Shown here in pieces: positions 15,094 through 54,728 of a DNA stretch of 64,000 bases. The stretch lies in assembly GCA_048938895.1 (NCBI GenBank), contig JBHLLU010000005.1:1-64000 (forward strand), given 5' to 3'. The stretch comes from Promethearchaeota archaeon. Its GTDB lineage: Archaea > Asgardarchaeota > Lokiarchaeia > Sigyniarchaeales > SOKP01. The notes under the pieces were generated by a model, which was given only the letters and a program-made list of their open reading frames with translations, was not told the origin of the DNA and ran no database searches. Within the stretch, counting starts at the first letter, position 1; the number at the start of each line of letters is the position of its first letter. A program made the position numbers and the translations under genes.

Positions 15094-15196
15094 ATATGAG
15101 TAATCCTATGAAGAAACTTTTTTAAGGTTATACTAAATATAAAAAGTATCATAATTTAAAGAATAATTGCTATAAAAAAATTATAGAGAAAGTACC

Positions 15197-16288
15197 ATGA
15201 CCGTAGGAATTGTTTATGATCCAATTTATTTGGAACACCAAACTGGAACTGATCCTGAGAGTCCTAGTAGATTAATCGCTATAATGGACTTTTTAAAGGA
15301 AAAGGGTATGCTGGAAGATCCAAATTATGCCTTTATTAAACCAAGGAAAGCCAGTTTGGATCAAATTCGATATGTCCATGACGATCAAATGATAAAAGAA
15401 ATACAAGATATCTGTGAATTAAGTGCTAAAACGCAACATATTCAATATTTAGATGCGGATACTGCCGTATCTCCTAAAACTTATGAAGCATCCCTTTACT
15501 CTGTAGGAGGTAATTTACAAGCTGTTGATGAAATATTAGATGGAAATATCCAGAATGCTTTTGCTTTAGTTAGACCTCCCGGACATCACTCTGATTCTCA
15601 TAAATTTGCTGGTTTTTGTATTTTCAATAACATTGCTGTGACTGCTGAATACCTCTTCAGAGAAAAAGGTATAAAACGCGTTGCAATAATTGATTGGGAT
15701 TGTCACCATGGTAATGGAACACAATCGATCTTTTACTATGGTTCTGAATCCGAATCAGGAGAACTTGTAATGTTCAACTCTCAACAATATGGCTTTTTCT
15801 ATCCTGGTAGTGGGAATTATGACGAGATTGGTAAGGGAAATGGTGCGGGTAAAATTATTAATTATCCAATGCCCGCTGGAACTGCTGAAGATGCAATCCC
15901 AATATTTTTTGAAGAAATAATATCTCCAATATGTCATGAATTTAAGCCTGAATTTATACTAATCTCTGCTGGATTTGATACTCATTGGACTGATAGCTTA
16001 ACAAACATGAATTGGACATACCAAGCTCCTGCAAGATATTTAGAAATGATAAAAACAATCGCTTCCAAATTTGCAAAAGATAGGATTCTTATTACACTCG
16101 AAGGTGGGTATGCTATTGATAAACAAGCACGAGCGGTATACAATTGCTTAAAAGTCCTTAATAATGAAAACAATAAACTCATTGAAGAAGAATCAAGAAC
16201 ATCAAGAAAAGAGTTATTAGAGTATTTCAATCAAAGATTAATCCCAGCATTAAAAAATAAATTACAACCTTATTGGGATTGTTTTTAA
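15197..16288 (+). CDS. Histone deacetylase (class II/AcuC-like) family Zn-dependent deacetylase
   Basis: RPPGHH, GFCIFNN, DWDCHHGNGTQ, SAGFD, LEGGY. Confidence 0.95.
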   Translation: MTVGIVYDPIYLEHQTGTDPESPSRLIAIMDFLKEKGMLEDPNYAFIKPRKASLDQIRYVHDDQMIKEIQDICELSAKTQHIQYLDADTAVSPKTYEASLYSVGGNLQAVDEILDGNIQNAFALVRPPGHHSDSHKFAGFCIFNNIAVTAEYLFREKGIKRVAIIDWDCHHGNGTQSIFYYGSESESGELVMFNSQQYGFFYPGSGNYDEIGKGNGAGKIINYPMPAGTAEDAIPIFFEEIISPICHEFKPEFILISAGFDTHWTDSLTNMNWTYQAPARYLEMIKTIASKFAKDRILITLEGGYAIDKQARAVYNCLKVLNNENNKLIEEESRTSRKELLEYFNQRLIPALKNKLQPYWDCF

Positions 16289-49274: not shown

Positions 49275-51119
49275 ATGCTAAAAAAAACTAAAGCTTTCAT
49301 AGCTTTCTCAATTTGTGTAGTAATCTTTTTTAATTTCATTTTTCTTCCTAATTATTCTGATTCGAATCAAAGTATAAATGATAATTTTCAATATCCAGAA
49401 AATTCAGCAAATCTGGAAGGTATAGATAATATAATTGTAACAAATGTAGAAAGACTTGCTAATATAAGCGGATATGGAGTAGTAAGCTTTACAGATTATA
49501 TTTCCATTAAAAATCTTAATAGTAATCCAATCACTTCAATGTTTATTGCAATACCGCTAAATTACTCAGAATTATTGATATATTATGAAGCAAAGGGAAG
49601 TGATGCTAACTCTTTACTCACAGAACGTACTCATCTAATAATGAATGGATTTGAAATGATAACAGTCTATTTTGAATCACCTCTTTTACCATATCAAACG
49701 AAAAAAATACTTTTTATACAGCAATTCAAAGATCTCTTGAAATATTATACACTTAACGAGCATCAGTTCATTGATTATAATGGATATGTTTTTCCTCTTT
49801 TACCATATAGATCTGAGAGAAAAATGGATGCCCAATTTCATCTACCGCTAAGAGCACAAAATATTGAAGGAGGATGGGGTTTTGAACAACCTGATCTATA
49901 CTTCGTCAAGTATGATTTAGCCTATATTAAAGACTCTGTTGAGGGACCTTACATTGAGCCTTTCTTGGAAAATTTAGATGAATTTAAGAGAATTACAGTG
50001 TCTTTTTATCAAGATGATGTTACTTTATTAGAATTTGAAGAAATCGATAGACAGATTTTTATATCTCCTTGGGGTGTGATCAAGGTGACGGAAGAGTATA
50101 TCATTACTAACTATGGTGTAACATCGAATCAATACATTTTTTTAAACCTTCCTAAATCCGCAAGAGATGCATATGTTTCTGATGATATTGGTGAAATATT
50201 AGGGATTAGAATTCTTAAAAAAAGTAATCATAAGGAACTAAGAATTAATTTATTAGAAAATCGTGTAAGATTAATACCAAATTCATCATTTCGGTTTAAA
50301 ATAAGATATTATTTGCCTTTTGAGAAACACTATTCATTAAATTGGCTTCAAGAGTCAATTGAAATTGATCTCTATACCTCAACCTTCGAATATGCTGGGA
50401 AACAATTAACTATTAAATTAATTATTGATGGATGTTATAGTGTAGATCATATTACTTCATCTCCTGAATCAGTAAAAAAATCACATGGGAGAATGAGTTT
50501 AATTTTTACATCAGACTCTGTTGCCTCCTTAGAAGCCAAGATTATTCAGTTTACTTTTACGATCGATTTTTTTGATCTACTATTAAATCCCATCATTTAT
50601 ATTTTAATAATTGCCTCAATTGCATCTATTTATGTATTTATAATTAAAACGAGAAAGAAAGAATCTGGTACCCAAATATTAAAAAGAGAATTCATACCTG
50701 TAAACGAAATTCGGGAATTTTGCGCTTTATATGAAGAAAAAAATGCATTAATTTTAGAATTAAGGCAAGCTGAAGAGGATGCAAAAAGAAGGAAAATTGC
50801 AAAAAAGAATTATAAAAGCATTTTAAATAAAAATACAGCGAAAGTTGATGAAATCCAAAAAGAAATCGCACCTTTCAAAAAAATATTAATGGAAACAAGT
50901 GAGACTTTTGAAAATATTGTGAAAAGACTAGACGTACTTGAAGCGGAGAGAATCAGTATTAATGACAGTTTAAACCTATTAGAATCTAGATATAAAAGAG
51001 GTAGATTACCTTCTAGAGCTGCATATATGAAATTATCAGATGATTTCTTGAAAAGAAGGAAAAAAATCGACAGGACCATTGATAGATTTTTACAGCAATT
51101 AAGAAGTTACCTTCTTTGA
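49275..51119 (+). CDS. Ribophorin I (OST1/RPN1)-like oligosaccharyltransferase accessory subunit
   Basis: Signal segment; IDRQIFISPWGVIKVTEEYIITN, LPKSA.DAYVSDDIGEI; TM at about aa 435-457; cytoplasmic coiled coil. Confidence 0.75.
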   Translation: MLKKTKAFIAFSICVVIFFNFIFLPNYSDSNQSINDNFQYPENSANLEGIDNIIVTNVERLANISGYGVVSFTDYISIKNLNSNPITSMFIAIPLNYSELLIYYEAKGSDANSLLTERTHLIMNGFEMITVYFESPLLPYQTKKILFIQQFKDLLKYYTLNEHQFIDYNGYVFPLLPYRSERKMDAQFHLPLRAQNIEGGWGFEQPDLYFVKYDLAYIKDSVEGPYIEPFLENLDEFKRITVSFYQDDVTLLEFEEIDRQIFISPWGVIKVTEEYIITNYGVTSNQYIFLNLPKSARDAYVSDDIGEILGIRILKKSNHKELRINLLENRVRLIPNSSFRFKIRYYLPFEKHYSLNWLQESIEIDLYTSTFEYAGKQLTIKLIIDGCYSVDHITSSPESVKKSHGRMSLIFTSDSVASLEAKIIQFTFTIDFFDLLLNPIIYILIIASIASIYVFIIKTRKKESGTQILKREFIPVNEIREFCALYEEKNALILELRQAEEDAKRRKIAKKNYKSILNKNTAKVDEIQKEIAPFKKILMETSETFENIVKRLDVLEAERISINDSLNLLESRYKRGRLPSRAAYMKLSDDFLKRRKKIDRTIDRFLQQLRSYLL

Positions 51120-51138: not shown

Positions 51139-51771
51139 GTGAAATTTATGAAACCTTGGTTGTTTGACATTTTAGCATGTCCTATTGATAAACATTTTCC
51201 ATTGAAATTGTACATTTTTTCATTTGAAACCGATTCAAACGAATTCAATTCTTTTTTAGATATTTTGGAAAAGAGAGACCTTGACTTCATCAAAAAAGAG
51301 GAAATTGTAAAAATTTATCAAAAAAATGATATCTTTTTCCTTAAAGATAACATTGTAATTGAAAAAACAGAACTTAAGAAGTATGTCGATCTGATAATTT
51401 CAAGTATTAACGAGTTAGATAATATCTATAATAGAAGTTCTTCAAAGGAAAGCAAGAAATGTTTTGAAATTATTGCCGCGCAAATAAAGCCAAAGATCTC
51501 AAATTTCAGAGATTTTCTTGATCCAAATAAATTAGATAATATACTTCCTGAGTTAAATTTCTTGAATAAATTTAAATTAGATACTGAAATTGATAGGGGT
51601 CTACTCTTCTGTACAAAATGTAACCGATGGTACCCCATAATTGAAACAATTCCCCAAATGCTACCAGATGAATATAGAGATGAGACAAAGGATATCGAAT
51701 TCCTTAAAACCATTAAAAATTTAATTGATGAAGAATTTTTTAATAAAGATTTAAAACCTTTCAATCTTTAA
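51139..51771 (+). CDS. trm112: Trm112-family methyltransferase activator with a large central insertion; start likely ATG 51148
   Basis: MKPWLFDILACPIDK.FPL ... GLLFCTKCNRWYPIIETIPQMLPDE. Confidence 0.85.
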   Translation: MKFMKPWLFDILACPIDKHFPLKLYIFSFETDSNEFNSFLDILEKRDLDFIKKEEIVKIYQKNDIFFLKDNIVIEKTELKKYVDLIISSINELDNIYNRSSSKESKKCFEIIAAQIKPKISNFRDFLDPNKLDNILPELNFLNKFKLDTEIDRGLLFCTKCNRWYPIIETIPQMLPDEYRDETKDIEFLKTIKNLIDEEFFNKDLKPFNL

Positions 51772-51788
51772 AACCTTAATAAAAACAC

Positions 51789-51920
51789 AGCCCGGTAGTG
51801 TAGAATAATACATTCATAATGTATTATGCTTAATGGCCAAGCATTTAGGGCTTTGAACCCTGAGACCACGGTTCGAAAATTTACGAGATTGCTCGTCAAT
51901 AGAAACTCCGTGCCGGGCTA
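51789..51920 (+). tRNA. tRNA-Gln(UUG) with two introns (51804-51833 at position 15/16; 51878-51906 at position 59/60)
   Basis: Removing the two inserts gives a 73-nt cloverleaf: acceptor AGCCCGG/CCGGGCT, D-stem GTGT/GCAT, anticodon arm TAGGG-CTTTGAA-CCCTG, T-arm CACGG-TTCGAAT-CCGTG. Confidence 0.92.
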
Positions 51921-52050: not shown

Positions 52051-52380
52051 ATGGCTATCCTAACTAAGTTAAGAAATGATAAGATAAGACGTATTGTCAT
52101 TGTAGCAATTGCCATTGCAATTGTTTCAACAGTGGCGCTAGCGATAATTTTTGCAGTGTTAAACATAAAATTTGTAATTGATGAAGGTGATGATGATGAT
52201 GATTGCAAAATATGAAAACGGACGTTAAATATCAAACCATCTCTAAAAAGAAATGAATCAATAGATAATCAATTAATGAAGTTAAACGAGGAAACTTTAA
52301 TAAATAAAATTTTTACAAAACTGGATGAATCTTGTAAAAAAATGCTAGTTACAAGAGGACAACCCTGTGAAGGTATTTGA
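52051..52380 (+). CDS. Small single-TM protein with CxxU, candidate selenoprotein (54 aa if UGA 52213 is a stop; 109 aa if it is read as Sec)
   Basis: MAILTKLRNDKIRR-IVIVAIAIAIVSTVALAIIFAVL-NIKFVIDEGDDDDD-C-K-I-(TGA); frame stays open to TGA 52378-52380; not in the ORF track. Confidence 0.6.
52325..52360 (+). promoter_or_regulatory. Candidate eukaryote/Loki-type SECIS (kink-turn core) element
   Basis: ATGAA-TCTTGTAA-AAAAATGCTAG-TTACAAGA-GGAC: AUGAN/NGAN core, perfect 8-bp helix, A-rich apical loop. Confidence 0.5.
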
Positions 52381-52450
52381 TTATAAAATTTTTCTTTTTT
52401 TACTAATCAATCAAATAGGTTTTTAGGTTTTAAATATAATCTCTAAATTC

Positions 52451-53119
52451 TCAGAAGTAAATTAAAACAATTTGATTTATGAGGAGATATATTGCTAAAA
52501 ACACCAAAATTGCTCCATTCAAAAGCCTTAGTTTAGTGCGATGCTTTATTCGAAAATCATTTATTTTTGATGATTCTAATCCTAACCGAATTAATATTAA
52601 TATTACAATAATTGGTAATAACATTCCTATAATGTATATAAAGATAAAAACATAAAGCAGTGGATTTGCATAAAGATTAGCAAGAATAGATAAGTAAATT
52701 CCCCCAAAACAAGGGATCTTAATTAGAACAAAAATAATTCCAACTAAAAAAGCATAAAATCCAGAATTTTTTTGTATAAAACTATTTAATACTGTTTTTA
52801 CCTTCTCAGGCGTTCCAAAGATTAAGCTTTGTTCTTTTTTACATTCTACTATTTGCCACAATCCCAAAAAGATTAAAATCCCTGCGAAGATAAAACTAAT
52901 AAAAATCAACTCTTCAATTAAAGGCAAAAACAGAATTGAAACTAGAATATAAGCAAGAACCATCCCAGTAATTAATCCTATTGAAATGATAAGAAATTTA
53001 TTTTTCTCTTCTATTAGAACTACAGAGGTTCCAAAAACACTAAGCATTAATAATATACAAGGTGTAATCCCTACGGCTAAACCTGACAAAAAAGTAATTA
53101 GGATATTAACTTCTTCCAT
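52451..53119 (-). CDS. CcdA/DsbD-beta family transmembrane disulfide electron transporter
   Basis: 6 TMs with two redox Cys in GITPCIL and IKIPCFG; YIIGMLLP. Confidence 0.85.
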   Translation of the reverse strand: MEEVNILITFLSGLAVGITPCILLMLSVFGTSVVLIEEKNKFLIISIGLITGMVLAYILVSILFLPLIEELIFISFIFAGILIFLGLWQIVECKKEQSLIFGTPEKVKTVLNSFIQKNSGFYAFLVGIIFVLIKIPCFGGIYLSILANLYANPLLYVFIFIYIIGMLLPIIVILILIRLGLESSKINDFRIKHRTKLRLLNGAILVFLAIYLLINQIVLIYF

Positions 53120-53339: not shown

Positions 53340-54728
53340 TTGTATAAACTTATGAGACTATTATCTAAAATGAATTGGGGATTTGTAGAAATATTATTTC
53401 TAATAGTAATTTTTGTAGTGGGATTACTATCTACTTACTTTCTTCTCCCATATGTTATAAAATTAATGAAAAAGAAAAATTACATAGGATATGATATACA
53501 CAAGAATTCTCGACCTGAAGTGGCTGAATCTGGAGGACTTAGTTTTGTTTTGGGATTTATTATTACTTCCATATTCTTAATGGTATTTTTTATTAATTTT
53601 TTGAGTGAAATTTTGATCTTTGTTTTAACAGTACTATTAGCTGCAATAATTGGATTTATAGATGATCGAATAAAATTAAAATCTCGCTATAAAATAATTC
53701 TTTCTATATTTTCGGGAACAATAATATTTATTGCAAATTCTGTTGGTTTTGTTAAGATATCCTCACCTACAATTCCCATACTAGATCGAACCAGATTGAG
53801 CATTATATATCCTTTTATGATACCCTTACTTGTTGCTATTTTTGGAAATACAGTAAATATGTTAGAAGGATATAACGGAGAAGGTTCAGGAACGTGTTTA
53901 ATTGCTGTTATTTCTCTTCTCATTTGTGCAATAATATGGGATTCTGCTCAGGGAGTGCTTTTTTCAATTCCAGTCATTGCTGTTTTAATCCCTTTCTTTC
54001 TTAAAAATAAATTTCCCGCTCAAGTTTTTCCTGGAGATATAGGAACATTGAGTATGGGAGCAATGATTGCGTGTATTATGTTGTTTGGCTCACTCGAAGT
54101 TGCTGCTTTTTGTGCTCTTCTAATTCATATATTTAATAGTTTTTATGTAATTTATTCTGTAAGAGGTTTTCTTGAAAGTGATAAAATAAGGGAAGGTAAA
54201 GATGATATCATTTTACTAGAAAACGATTTAATCAAAGCATCTGATCAAAAAGATGCGGCATTAACATTGCCTAGATTGATATTAGCAAGAGGACCATTAT
54301 CTGAACCAGAGTTAGTCAATAAATTTTTTATTATATCAATAATTTGTGGTATTTTTGCCATTCTTTCAGTGCTATTTACACAACTGACAAGGGGAATTTT
54401 AAACATCGGTCTTTTTATCATAATTTTTATACTATTTCTGATACCGATTGCATTTTTTTTAATAAAATACCCCAGAATTCGAGGTACTATTGTATTAATG
54501 GTAATTCTTTTAATTGCAGCTATCATATTCTTTCTTTTAGTAGAGCTTATTATAATGCCCTTACCAATTGCAGATATTAGATTAGGTATAATTTCCATCC
54601 CAGTAAATCTAATATTTACTTTGATCATCGGTCTTATTGGGTTGATTGGATGGTATTTTATTACGATTAAGTATTTTTGGTTTCAAATAAATTCTATGAA
54701 AAAAGAAGAAATGAATAAACAAGGTTAA
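53340..54728 (+). CDS. aglH: UDP-GlcNAc:dolichyl-phosphate GlcNAc-1-P transferase (AglH/Alg7, MraY superfamily) with extra C-terminal TMs
   Basis: GYDIHK..RPEVAESGG, IGFIDD, NTVNMLEGYNG, FPAQVFPGDIGT, LTLPRLIL. Confidence 0.85.
   Translation: MYKLMRLLSKMNWGFVEILFLIVIFVVGLLSTYFLLPYVIKLMKKKNYIGYDIHKNSRPEVAESGGLSFVLGFIITSIFLMVFFINFLSEILIFVLTVLLAAIIGFIDDRIKLKSRYKIILSIFSGTIIFIANSVGFVKISSPTIPILDRTRLSIIYPFMIPLLVAIFGNTVNMLEGYNGEGSGTCLIAVISLLICAIIWDSAQGVLFSIPVIAVLIPFFLKNKFPAQVFPGDIGTLSMGAMIACIMLFGSLEVAAFCALLIHIFNSFYVIYSVRGFLESDKIREGKDDIILLENDLIKASDQKDAALTLPRLILARGPLSEPELVNKFFIISIICGIFAILSVLFTQLTRGILNIGLFIIIFILFLIPIAFFLIKYPRIRGTIVLMVILLIAAIIFFLLVELIIMPLPIADIRLGIISIPVNLIFTLIIGLIGLIGWYFITIKYFWFQINSMKKEEMNKQG

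Follow-up and report, generated by a model that had tools for sequence, protein, structure and literature searches.

The window analyzed here, a stretch of 64,000 nucleotides of Promethearchaeota archaeon DNA (bases 1-64000 of contig C51; genome 4.65 Mb, approximately 30% G+C), contains a small gene starting with ATG at 52051, and a hairpin resembling a selenocysteine insertion sequence (SECIS) element lies toward the end of its reading frame. The first part of this open reading frame (ORF) encodes a basic N-terminus, then a single hydrophobic helix and an acidic linker ahead of Cys52-x-x, and is followed by a TGA as codon 55. Behind this TGA, the frame remains open and runs through the whole hairpin to a second TGA (Table 1). 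An earlier examination of the letters alone (hereafter, the sequence-only reading) had located the hairpin inside the read-through frame, which was right, at 110 nt after the UGA; the T of the in-frame TGA is 112 nt ahead of the A of the ATGA motif at the 5' side of the hairpin. The read-through protein matched 0 Pfam families at E ≤ 0.01, and the NCBIfam search gave chance-level rows only (E ≥ 0.069).

The unbroken stretch 52325-52360 reads ATGAATCTTGTAAAAAAATGCTAGTTACAAGAGGAC. ATGA and G-GA-C would form the two halves of a SECIS core, and a perfect 8-bp helix stands between them, with one additional non-standard A.G position at its base and with base 52329 separating ATGA from the helix. The apical loop of 11 nt starts with AAAAA and ends with AG. 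Hence, the ATGA/GA core, the perfect 8-bp helix, and the A-rich loop named in the sequence-only reading were all found in the sequence. At the basal stem position, four established SECIS elements of the same genome have U.U, C.A, U-A, or A-U. Folding with RNAfold placed the main hairpin within the minimum free energy structure (-13 kcal/mol, z = -2.43), and 3 of 200 shuffled sequences folded equally well.

Table 1 Features at the small-gene locus and its surroundings (positions in the window).
Feature	Position	Strand	Basis
Upstream tRNA-like gene with two insertions (~29 nt each: D region, T loop)	51790..51918	+	Syntenic context
Small selenoprotein ORF (predicted), first part: ATG to in-frame TGA (codon 55)	52051..52215	+	ORF and orthologue architecture
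TGA, probably read as selenocysteine	52213..52215	+	Kept in 12/13 syntenic orthologous loci, open frame behind
Read-through extension, 54 codons, through the whole SECIS to TGA 52378-52380	52216..52380	+	Open frame
Competing pairing 52310-52318 / 52332-52340, exact 9-bp complement, not conserved	52310..52340	+	
Weak basal helix (helix I), 5' strand, pairs with 52376-52379	52316..52319	+	Homology with the flank helices of relatives
ATGA, 5' half of the SECIS core (non-Watson-Crick quartet)	52325-52328	+	Seen in sequence
SECIS stem 52330-52337 / 52349-52356 and apical loop 52338-52348	52330..52356	+	Sequence, RNAfold, covariance model R1
G-GA-C, 3' half of the SECIS core (G 52357, GA 52358-52359, C 52360)	52357..52360	+	Sequence
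Small second hairpin of 3 bp with a 7-nt loop, immediately 3' of the core	52362..52374	+	Same place in 7 other SECIS elements of the genome
Weak basal helix, 3' strand, overlapping stop codon 52378-52380	52376..52379	+	Homology, energies
T-rich run (12 T + 1 C), likely archaeal terminator	52389..52401	+	Sequence; T runs at the same place in orthologues
Convergent CcdA/DsbD-like membrane thiol-disulfide electron transporter (putative), 222 residues; context, not part of the SECIS	52451..53119	-	Weak Pfam and fold match

The structure extends beyond the main hairpin. The sequence-only reading had recognized this hairpin correctly and had drawn the span of the element too short, as the second small hairpin and the basal helix (Table 1) enlarge it. 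When eight elements of the genome were folded, the second hairpin appeared in the 7 others at the same place with different sequences; among the orthologues, two of its pairs are invariant and one pair varies on one side. The elements at C43:3638-3685, C33:52353-52400, C33:123244-123291, C162:1276-1323, and C102:52821-52867 share this second hairpin after the core, and the basal helix of the elements of this genome encloses both hairpins in a manner resembling a three-way junction. Neither the second hairpin nor, for Loki elements, the basal helix was seen described in the published Loki SECIS accounts consulted.

The basal helix, or helix I, had been called weak in the sequence-only reading, which holds for this genome (4 bp) and not for most relatives. 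In 10 of 14 related loci, a flank helix of 8-9 bp was found at a constant place, where it also encloses the second small hairpin. Its support from shuffling was modest, since 31-205 of 2000 shuffles were equal in nine of those ten loci and 336 of 2000 in G018, and the flank helices of G000, G025, and G026 were not above chance in the same test with 2000 shuffles. When flanks were swapped among 16 elements, matched flanks gave a mean of 16.3 vs 12.2 for mismatched ones, and none of 20000 permutations reached the observed sum; with the nine elements of the small-gene family only, 86 of 20000 permutations reached it. The basal helix was examined by flank-swap and shuffle scripts only. In MAFFT alignments of longer SECIS segments (A1 and A4), the strands of this helix did not fall into common columns.

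The hairpin was then compared with the published descriptions of Asgard elements. As given in the main text of Mariotti et al. (2016; PMC4989117), a lokiSECIS has ATGA before the stem, a 9-bp stem, and a loop of 11 nt that opens with five mostly A bases and closes with an 'ultraconserved' G, usually after A; GA (or AA) follows the stem, and the element lies near the end of the coding sequence. The looser Asgard type I eSECIS-like (eukaryotic SECIS-like) model in the main text of Huang et al. (2024; PMC11227280) has a GA_[G/A]A core, a 7-15 bp stem, and an 8-20 nt loop. The candidate has each sequence feature of both models. The sequence-only reading had counted the short helix as a weakness; the length of 8 bp was correct, whereas a short stem (9-position stem, 11-nt loop) is a defining trait of lokiSECIS elements.

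A covariance model (R1) was built from an alignment (A2) of four established elements of the same genome, three of frhD genes and one of a Prx-like gene, with the candidate excluded. R1 scored the candidate at 46.9 bits, with an E-value of 8.7e-10 in the window and 6.3e-8 genome-wide (both rough owing to a short calibration), and the candidate was the best match outside the training set. Together with the presence of all published lokiSECIS sequence signatures, this bears out the SECIS assignment of the sequence-only reading, specifically as the Loki type, by one of the checks that it had proposed, a covariance model of Loki elements. Genome-wide, R1, which does not capture the type II selD elements, gave eight matches at E ≤ 1, namely the four training elements, the candidate, and three others, and 8/8 follow ORFs with an in-frame TGA. 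The next match in the window (15160-15201, forward strand, 18.7 bits, E 0.038) has no TGA/GA core, has a loop consisting of an A run only, and is probably due to chance.

One of the three other genomic matches lies behind a long ORF that has a single in-frame TGA, codes for Cys motifs of the ferredoxin type, and is HdrA-like by eye. Another (36.8 bits) is a lokiSECIS after a 55-residue ORF (C102:8486-8718; L052:1315-1547), 47 nt past the TGA. This ORF matched no Pfam family and encodes a basic N-terminus and a single hydrophobic helix, followed by a Gly-rich linker and by Sec-x-Cys (Sec, selenocysteine) 8 codons ahead of the stop; it is a candidate for a second small membrane selenoprotein, paralogue-like to that of the window. 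The remaining match (35.2 bits) is a lokiSECIS after a 160-residue ORF with two adjacent in-frame TGA codons (C99:40428-40961; L053:1015-1548), likewise without a Pfam family, and this ORF is a candidate double-Sec selenoprotein of unknown family.

Generic patterns were less informative. The loose published Asgard model, used as a scan, matched 7199 sites in the 4.65-Mb genome, indicating that the generic pattern is unspecific, and a stricter scan ([A/G]TGA, GA, loop starting with AA, stem score ≥ 7) gave 17, the candidate included. The pattern scan missed the selD elements and several frhD elements because of its fixed geometry. The candidate therefore stands out beyond chance because of its fit to the SECIS elements of its own genome, not to the generic pattern.

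Metagenome data were also consistent with an element of this kind. Among DNA contigs from four runs, 10 pieces from three studies matched only approximately 52322-52374, mostly 52325-52360, at ≥80% identity with unrelated flanks, and the summed metagenome depth peaks over the element. These short matches fit a multi-copy element family. A strain-variant contig (X6, depth 3.1) has four differences in coding parts, and none is listed in the hairpin or the TGA.

Subsequently, the locus was examined in relatives. A six-frame search with the read-through protein found the small gene in 13 of 54 genomes of the genus, the locus of G006 at an E-value of 0.002 only. The gene was not found in 24 genomes of other genera searched with the same query, where the one weak match had no stop inside and no R1 match, and a search for related loci in genome contigs with the small protein as the query gave no relative. 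The common order in the 13 loci is a Trm112-like gene, a tRNA, the small gene, and then a family 4 glycosyltransferase gene; a fourteenth locus (G034) is syntenic with the paralogue-like C102 gene, not with the window. R1 found the element in all 14 related loci, with 30.2-53 bits. In the close relative L062, whose neighbor gene is 83% identical, R1 found no match, and the interval from the tRNA to the CcdA-like gene is without the small gene.

An alignment of 13 elements (A3; 12 distinct rows: 12 syntenic elements and that of G034) showed that the TGA of the ATGA core is invariant in 13/13, with A in 11 and G in 2 as the preceding base, and that GAC of the 3' core and TAG at the loop end are likewise invariant. 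The stem and the second small hairpin were paired in 96.2% of the cells, vs 28-58% with a slid partner. Two of the 8 stem pairs changed in a compensatory manner, one being GC in 6 and AU in 5 and the other UA in 10, CG in 1, and UG in 1. This covariation lends moderate support to the base pairs, because the rows of the alignment are related. Stronger support comes from the elements of different genes in this genome, the stems of which are wholly different yet paired in the same geometry. No other part of the locus is as well conserved as the hairpin block, yet the reading frame inside it is not conserved; judged from these alignments, the block is conserved as RNA, not as peptide. Thus, the two comparative checks suggested along with the sequence-only reading, covariation in orthologues and presence of the motif in orthologues that contain the UGA, both came out in its favor.

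The TGA follows Cys-x(1-4) in 12 of the 13 syntenic loci, with a Cys-Sec spacing of 1-4 residues, and the distance from the TGA to the SECIS is 80-115 nt in the syntenic orthologues. In the 12 TGA-bearing loci, which represent approximately five lineages and have post-TGA sequences that can hardly be aligned, 26-93 codons are open in frame behind the TGA, vs 0-19 codons in the other two frames. Furthermore, W stands at both TGA positions in the metagenome proteins P0002 (70% identical) and P0003 (64% identical), evidently because a code with TGA as Trp was used in calling them; they show an open frame, not translation.

The position of the stop relative to the element varies among the orthologues. 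With the first base of the ATGA core as the reference, the frame behind the Sec codon first meets a stop at +1 in G009 and G006 (TGA of ATGA), at +14 in G005, G030, G026, G069, G064, and G061 (TAA in the loop), at +21 in G004 (TAG at the loop end), and at +32 in G025 (TGA in the 3' core); in G000 (+53) and G018 (+167), the stop lies beyond the element. The ORF thus ends within or past the SECIS in 12/12 TGA-bearing syntenic orthologues, and in this genome the entire element, basal helix included, lies inside the ORF. The location within the recoded frame, which had been put down as unusual in the sequence-only reading, was confirmed, and the oddity turned out to be a trait of the family. Partial overlap of a lokiSECIS with the coding sequence is already published, the extreme case in the main text being VhuU.1, in which ATGA doubles as the stop codon (PMC4989117); new here are the degree and the constancy of the overlap. 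We also considered whether a minimal UGA-to-SECIS distance forces the 80-115 nt after the TGA to serve as a translated spacer, an explanation that is weakened by the distance of only 47 nt in the C102 gene.

The genome encodes machinery for Sec. On contig C51, a tRNA-Sec (61.1 bits, above the Rfam cut-off), SepSecS (499.7 bits), and a SelB-type factor (243.3 bits, just above the cut-off) were found; these three lie within 8 kb of one another at C51:99651-107184, outside the window. A PSTK-like match scored 151.4 bits, below the curated cut-off of 290.5. In-frame TGA codons also occur in two selD genes and two Prx-like genes (one per gene) and in four frhD/mvhD genes (two per gene); one frhD gene (C43) uses the TGA of its ATGA core as the stop codon.

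Taken together, membership in an RNA family, conservation with covariation, a conserved TGA with an open frame behind it, and the Sec machinery in the genome make it very probable that the hairpin is a real lokiSECIS, or Asgard type I eSECIS-like element, of the small gene. The ATGA and the GA at 52358-52359 would form a kink-turn-like core at the base of the 8-bp stem with its A-rich loop. On the mRNA, the element would recruit the archaeal Sec-specific elongation factor with Sec-tRNA(Sec), both being encoded on the same contig, and a ribosome at the UGA 112 nt upstream would insert selenocysteine rather than terminate. The ribosome would then continue through the element and stop where the 3' strand of the basal helix holds a UGA; ribosomes of the relatives would stop in the ATGA core, in the loop, in the 3' core, or further on. 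By the positive-inside rule, a basic N-terminus stays inside, and the product is accordingly predicted to be a single-pass membrane protein of approximately 108 residues with its N-terminus in and its C-terminus out. The Cys-x-x-Sec pair behind the acidic juxtamembrane linker would then probably be a thiol/selenol redox site outside the cytoplasm. We infer from these observations the binding of the factor, the insertion of Sec as such, the topology, and the redox role. A wider picture can be drawn, although we lean slightly against it as a whole: one Promethearchaeota genus would possess lineage-specific families of tiny membrane-anchored selenoproteins (N-in, C-out, with Cys/Sec on the outer face), which homology surveys have missed and in which a eukaryote-like SECIS acts as a translated in-frame element.

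Several observations weigh against this assignment or its details. In one of the 13 syntenic orthologues (G068; L054, approximately 1620-1720), the TGA is absent although the element is retained (40.7 bits). Inspection by eye shows Cys-x-Cys at the site of Cys-x-Sec in close relatives, next to a direct duplication of 30 nt around the Cys motif; this looks like either replacement of Sec by Cys or an error of assembly. No third-position bias was seen in the peptide behind the TGA (e.g., 6/4/5 differences by codon position), and synonymous to non-synonymous codon differences in 7 pairs, from 2-4 to 3-14, amount to approximately 1 to 3, indicating weak constraint; this comparison was usable behind the TGA only, the sequences ahead of it being unaligned through indels. 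Because the amino-acid constraint is weak, the argument for translation rests on the preserved frame and its length. In addition, an element inside an ORF is unwound by each passing ribosome. The basal helix of 4 bp brings no net energy gain in this genome (-5.6 with it, -6.9 without it), and the flanks of the candidate pair no better than 5 of 15 mismatched flanks. The genome is a metagenome-assembled genome with 7.5% estimated contamination, and the genome-wide R1 search scored 150 of 8543 first-look candidates. Finally, the Rfam SECIS families gave no match at E ≤ 10 in 52150-52480, and Rfam at gathering thresholds gave nothing in the whole window. Since the Rfam SECIS families also missed the four established elements of this genome, their miss is uninformative on the candidate; Rfam-type SECIS models are reported, in the main text of PMC4989117, to miss Loki elements.

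Some of these points would suit a simpler account, in which translation simply ends at the TGA at 52213 to give a membrane peptide of 54 residues, and the 3' untranslated region carries the hairpin as a SECIS-like remnant that is inert or decaying. The almost unconstrained peptide behind the TGA, the hairpin kept in G068 without a TGA, and the absence of the evidently dispensable gene in L062 would all be expected under this account. It does not explain why the frame is open for 26-93 codons in 12/12 loci of approximately five diverged lineages, why the TGA is kept directly after Cys-x(1-4), and why the hairpin is the best-conserved block with compensatory changes, and we consider it very unlikely. 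Conservation of the block could instead reflect a C-terminal peptide motif with two Cys that resembles a hairpin by accident, since the block is in frame and translated in G000, G068, and the metagenome proteins P0002 and P0003. Elsewhere, however, the block is interrupted by TAA in the loop (6 loci), TAG (1), TGA in the 3' core (1), or TGA of the ATGA core (2), and the frame is shifted in others; the stem changes are compensatory, and unrelated genes (frhD, Prx-like, and others) are followed, outside their ORFs, by the same architecture. A peptide motif is therefore hardly credible as the cause of the conservation.

Regulation by a competing fold was raised in the sequence-only reading, according to which 52310-52318 can pair with 52332-52340 by chance or as a switch. 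The complement is indeed exact over 9 bp, and with -4.1 vs -5.9 kcal/mol it is only 1.8 kcal/mol worse than the SECIS stem, as might suit a riboswitch-like toggle of Sec insertion. In the relatives, however, the competing fold was paired in 39.3% of the cells, a share no higher than that of slid controls (34-50%), and for seven of the nine pairs the only departures are unpaired cells. Its upstream arm lies within fast-evolving coding sequence, and a 9-bp A/T complement easily arises in DNA of 28% G+C. From these comparisons, the competing fold is a chance complement in A/T-rich sequence, the first of the two possibilities named, and a toggle appears very unlikely. The T-rich run at 52389-52401, just behind the hairpin, would accord with yet another role, that of a terminator-like hairpin for transcript end or stability unrelated to recoding. 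Archaeal termination needs T runs, not such hairpins, which speaks against this role; moreover, the sequence-specific core and loop match SECIS elements, and the motif occurs in the genome only behind TGA-containing ORFs (8/8), so that we give a terminator function next to no credence.

The candidate resembles published lokiSECIS elements in its ATGA, its 9-position stem, its 11-nt loop that begins with five A and ends in AG, its GA, and its position at the end of the coding sequence, as well as in its host, which has Sec machinery of the archaeal/eukaryotic type and no known SBP2. It differs in serving a gene family that is missing from the published lists consulted and in that the whole element, not just its first bases, is in the ORF. 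With the eukaryotic type I SECIS, a kink-turn bound by SBP2, it shares the logic of the AUGA...AA...GA core, the action at a distance on an upstream UGA, and probably a minimal-distance rule, whereas its stem is shorter, it has no Rfam SECIS match at E ≤ 10, and it is not in the 3' untranslated region. No SBP2 is on record for Asgard archaea (PMC11227280). A eukaryotic precedent for a working element in this position is the SECIS of fowlpox virus GPx4 (Mix et al., PMC1802603), which, as far as the available text goes, is also a kink-turn-type SECIS in the coding region downstream of the UGA; that case concerns one gene in a viral eukaryotic system, in contrast to an archaeal gene family with the overlap in 12/12 orthologues here. 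The bacterial SECIS likewise lies within the reading frame downstream of the UGA, but, according to the main text of PMC4989117, it stands directly after the UGA in another fold without the AUGA/GA core, and the candidate is 112 nt away. The euryarchaeal SECIS has an archaeal host and an upstream UGA in common with the candidate, which, by inspection, has neither its GAA_A internal bulge nor its G+C-rich upper stem.

Seven Asgard selenoprotein families are listed in the published texts consulted (including PMC4989117 and PMC11227280): SelD, FrhA/VhuU, HdrA, FrhD/VhuD, Prx-like, an AhpF N-terminal homologue, and DsbA-like. A small membrane-anchored Cys/Sec protein is not among them in these texts, the supplementary tables of which may hold more, and the small selenoprotein proposed here is apparently undescribed. 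Asgard SECIS elements have been proposed as a link between archaeal and eukaryotic Sec decoding, and the seven families described so far were all found by homology. The present element is a clean instance found from the RNA side, serving a small membrane protein without a described family, and it pushes the overlap from partial to complete inclusion in the ORF. The natural series of stop positions, in the core, in the loop, in the 3' core, and beyond, can be used to test whether translation through a kink-turn SECIS matters, and also what UGA-to-SECIS distance the archaeal system requires. The model derived from the known elements of the genome found further selenoprotein candidates with high specificity (8/8). 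If the wider picture drawn above holds, a hidden Asgard selenoproteome could be brought to light by searches that start from the SECIS; three unannotated candidates are already present in this genome, namely the window gene and the C102 and C99 genes.

Convergent to the small gene lies a gene that is probably for a CcdA-type thiol-disulfide electron transporter. Its product matched Pfam DsbD_TM below the cut-off (E 0.025) and has two invariant Pro-Cys motifs. A structure model of low confidence (predicted local distance difference test score 65.6) had CcdA (5vkv) as its top fold match, with a TM (template modeling) score of 0.60 vs 0.34 for the next and a Foldseek E-value of 0.078, and a sequence profile search of the PDB found nothing. 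Among the 14 loci holding the small gene, the CcdA-like gene was found in 10, at 60-100% identity in nine, where it is placed between the small gene and the glycosyltransferase gene, and diverged (35-40%) in G061, and not in G005, G030, G026, and G064; in L062, it is present without the small gene. Because the linkage is partial, a redox partnership of the small protein with this neighbor is only a lead.

The tRNA-like gene upstream of the small gene has TTG in its anticodon loop by eye and would thus be a tRNA-Gln. ARAGORN reported no tRNA in the window, and Rfam also does not call this gene; the copy in the relative G006 (L022, approximately 974-1073) is without the T-loop insertion. Further out, the locus is flanked by genes for a Ribophorin I domain protein (49275-51119), a long Trm112-like protein (51139-51771), and a family 4 glycosyltransferase (53340-54728), all on the forward strand, and two of these three flanking genes are of the N-glycosylation type, typical of Asgard archaea.

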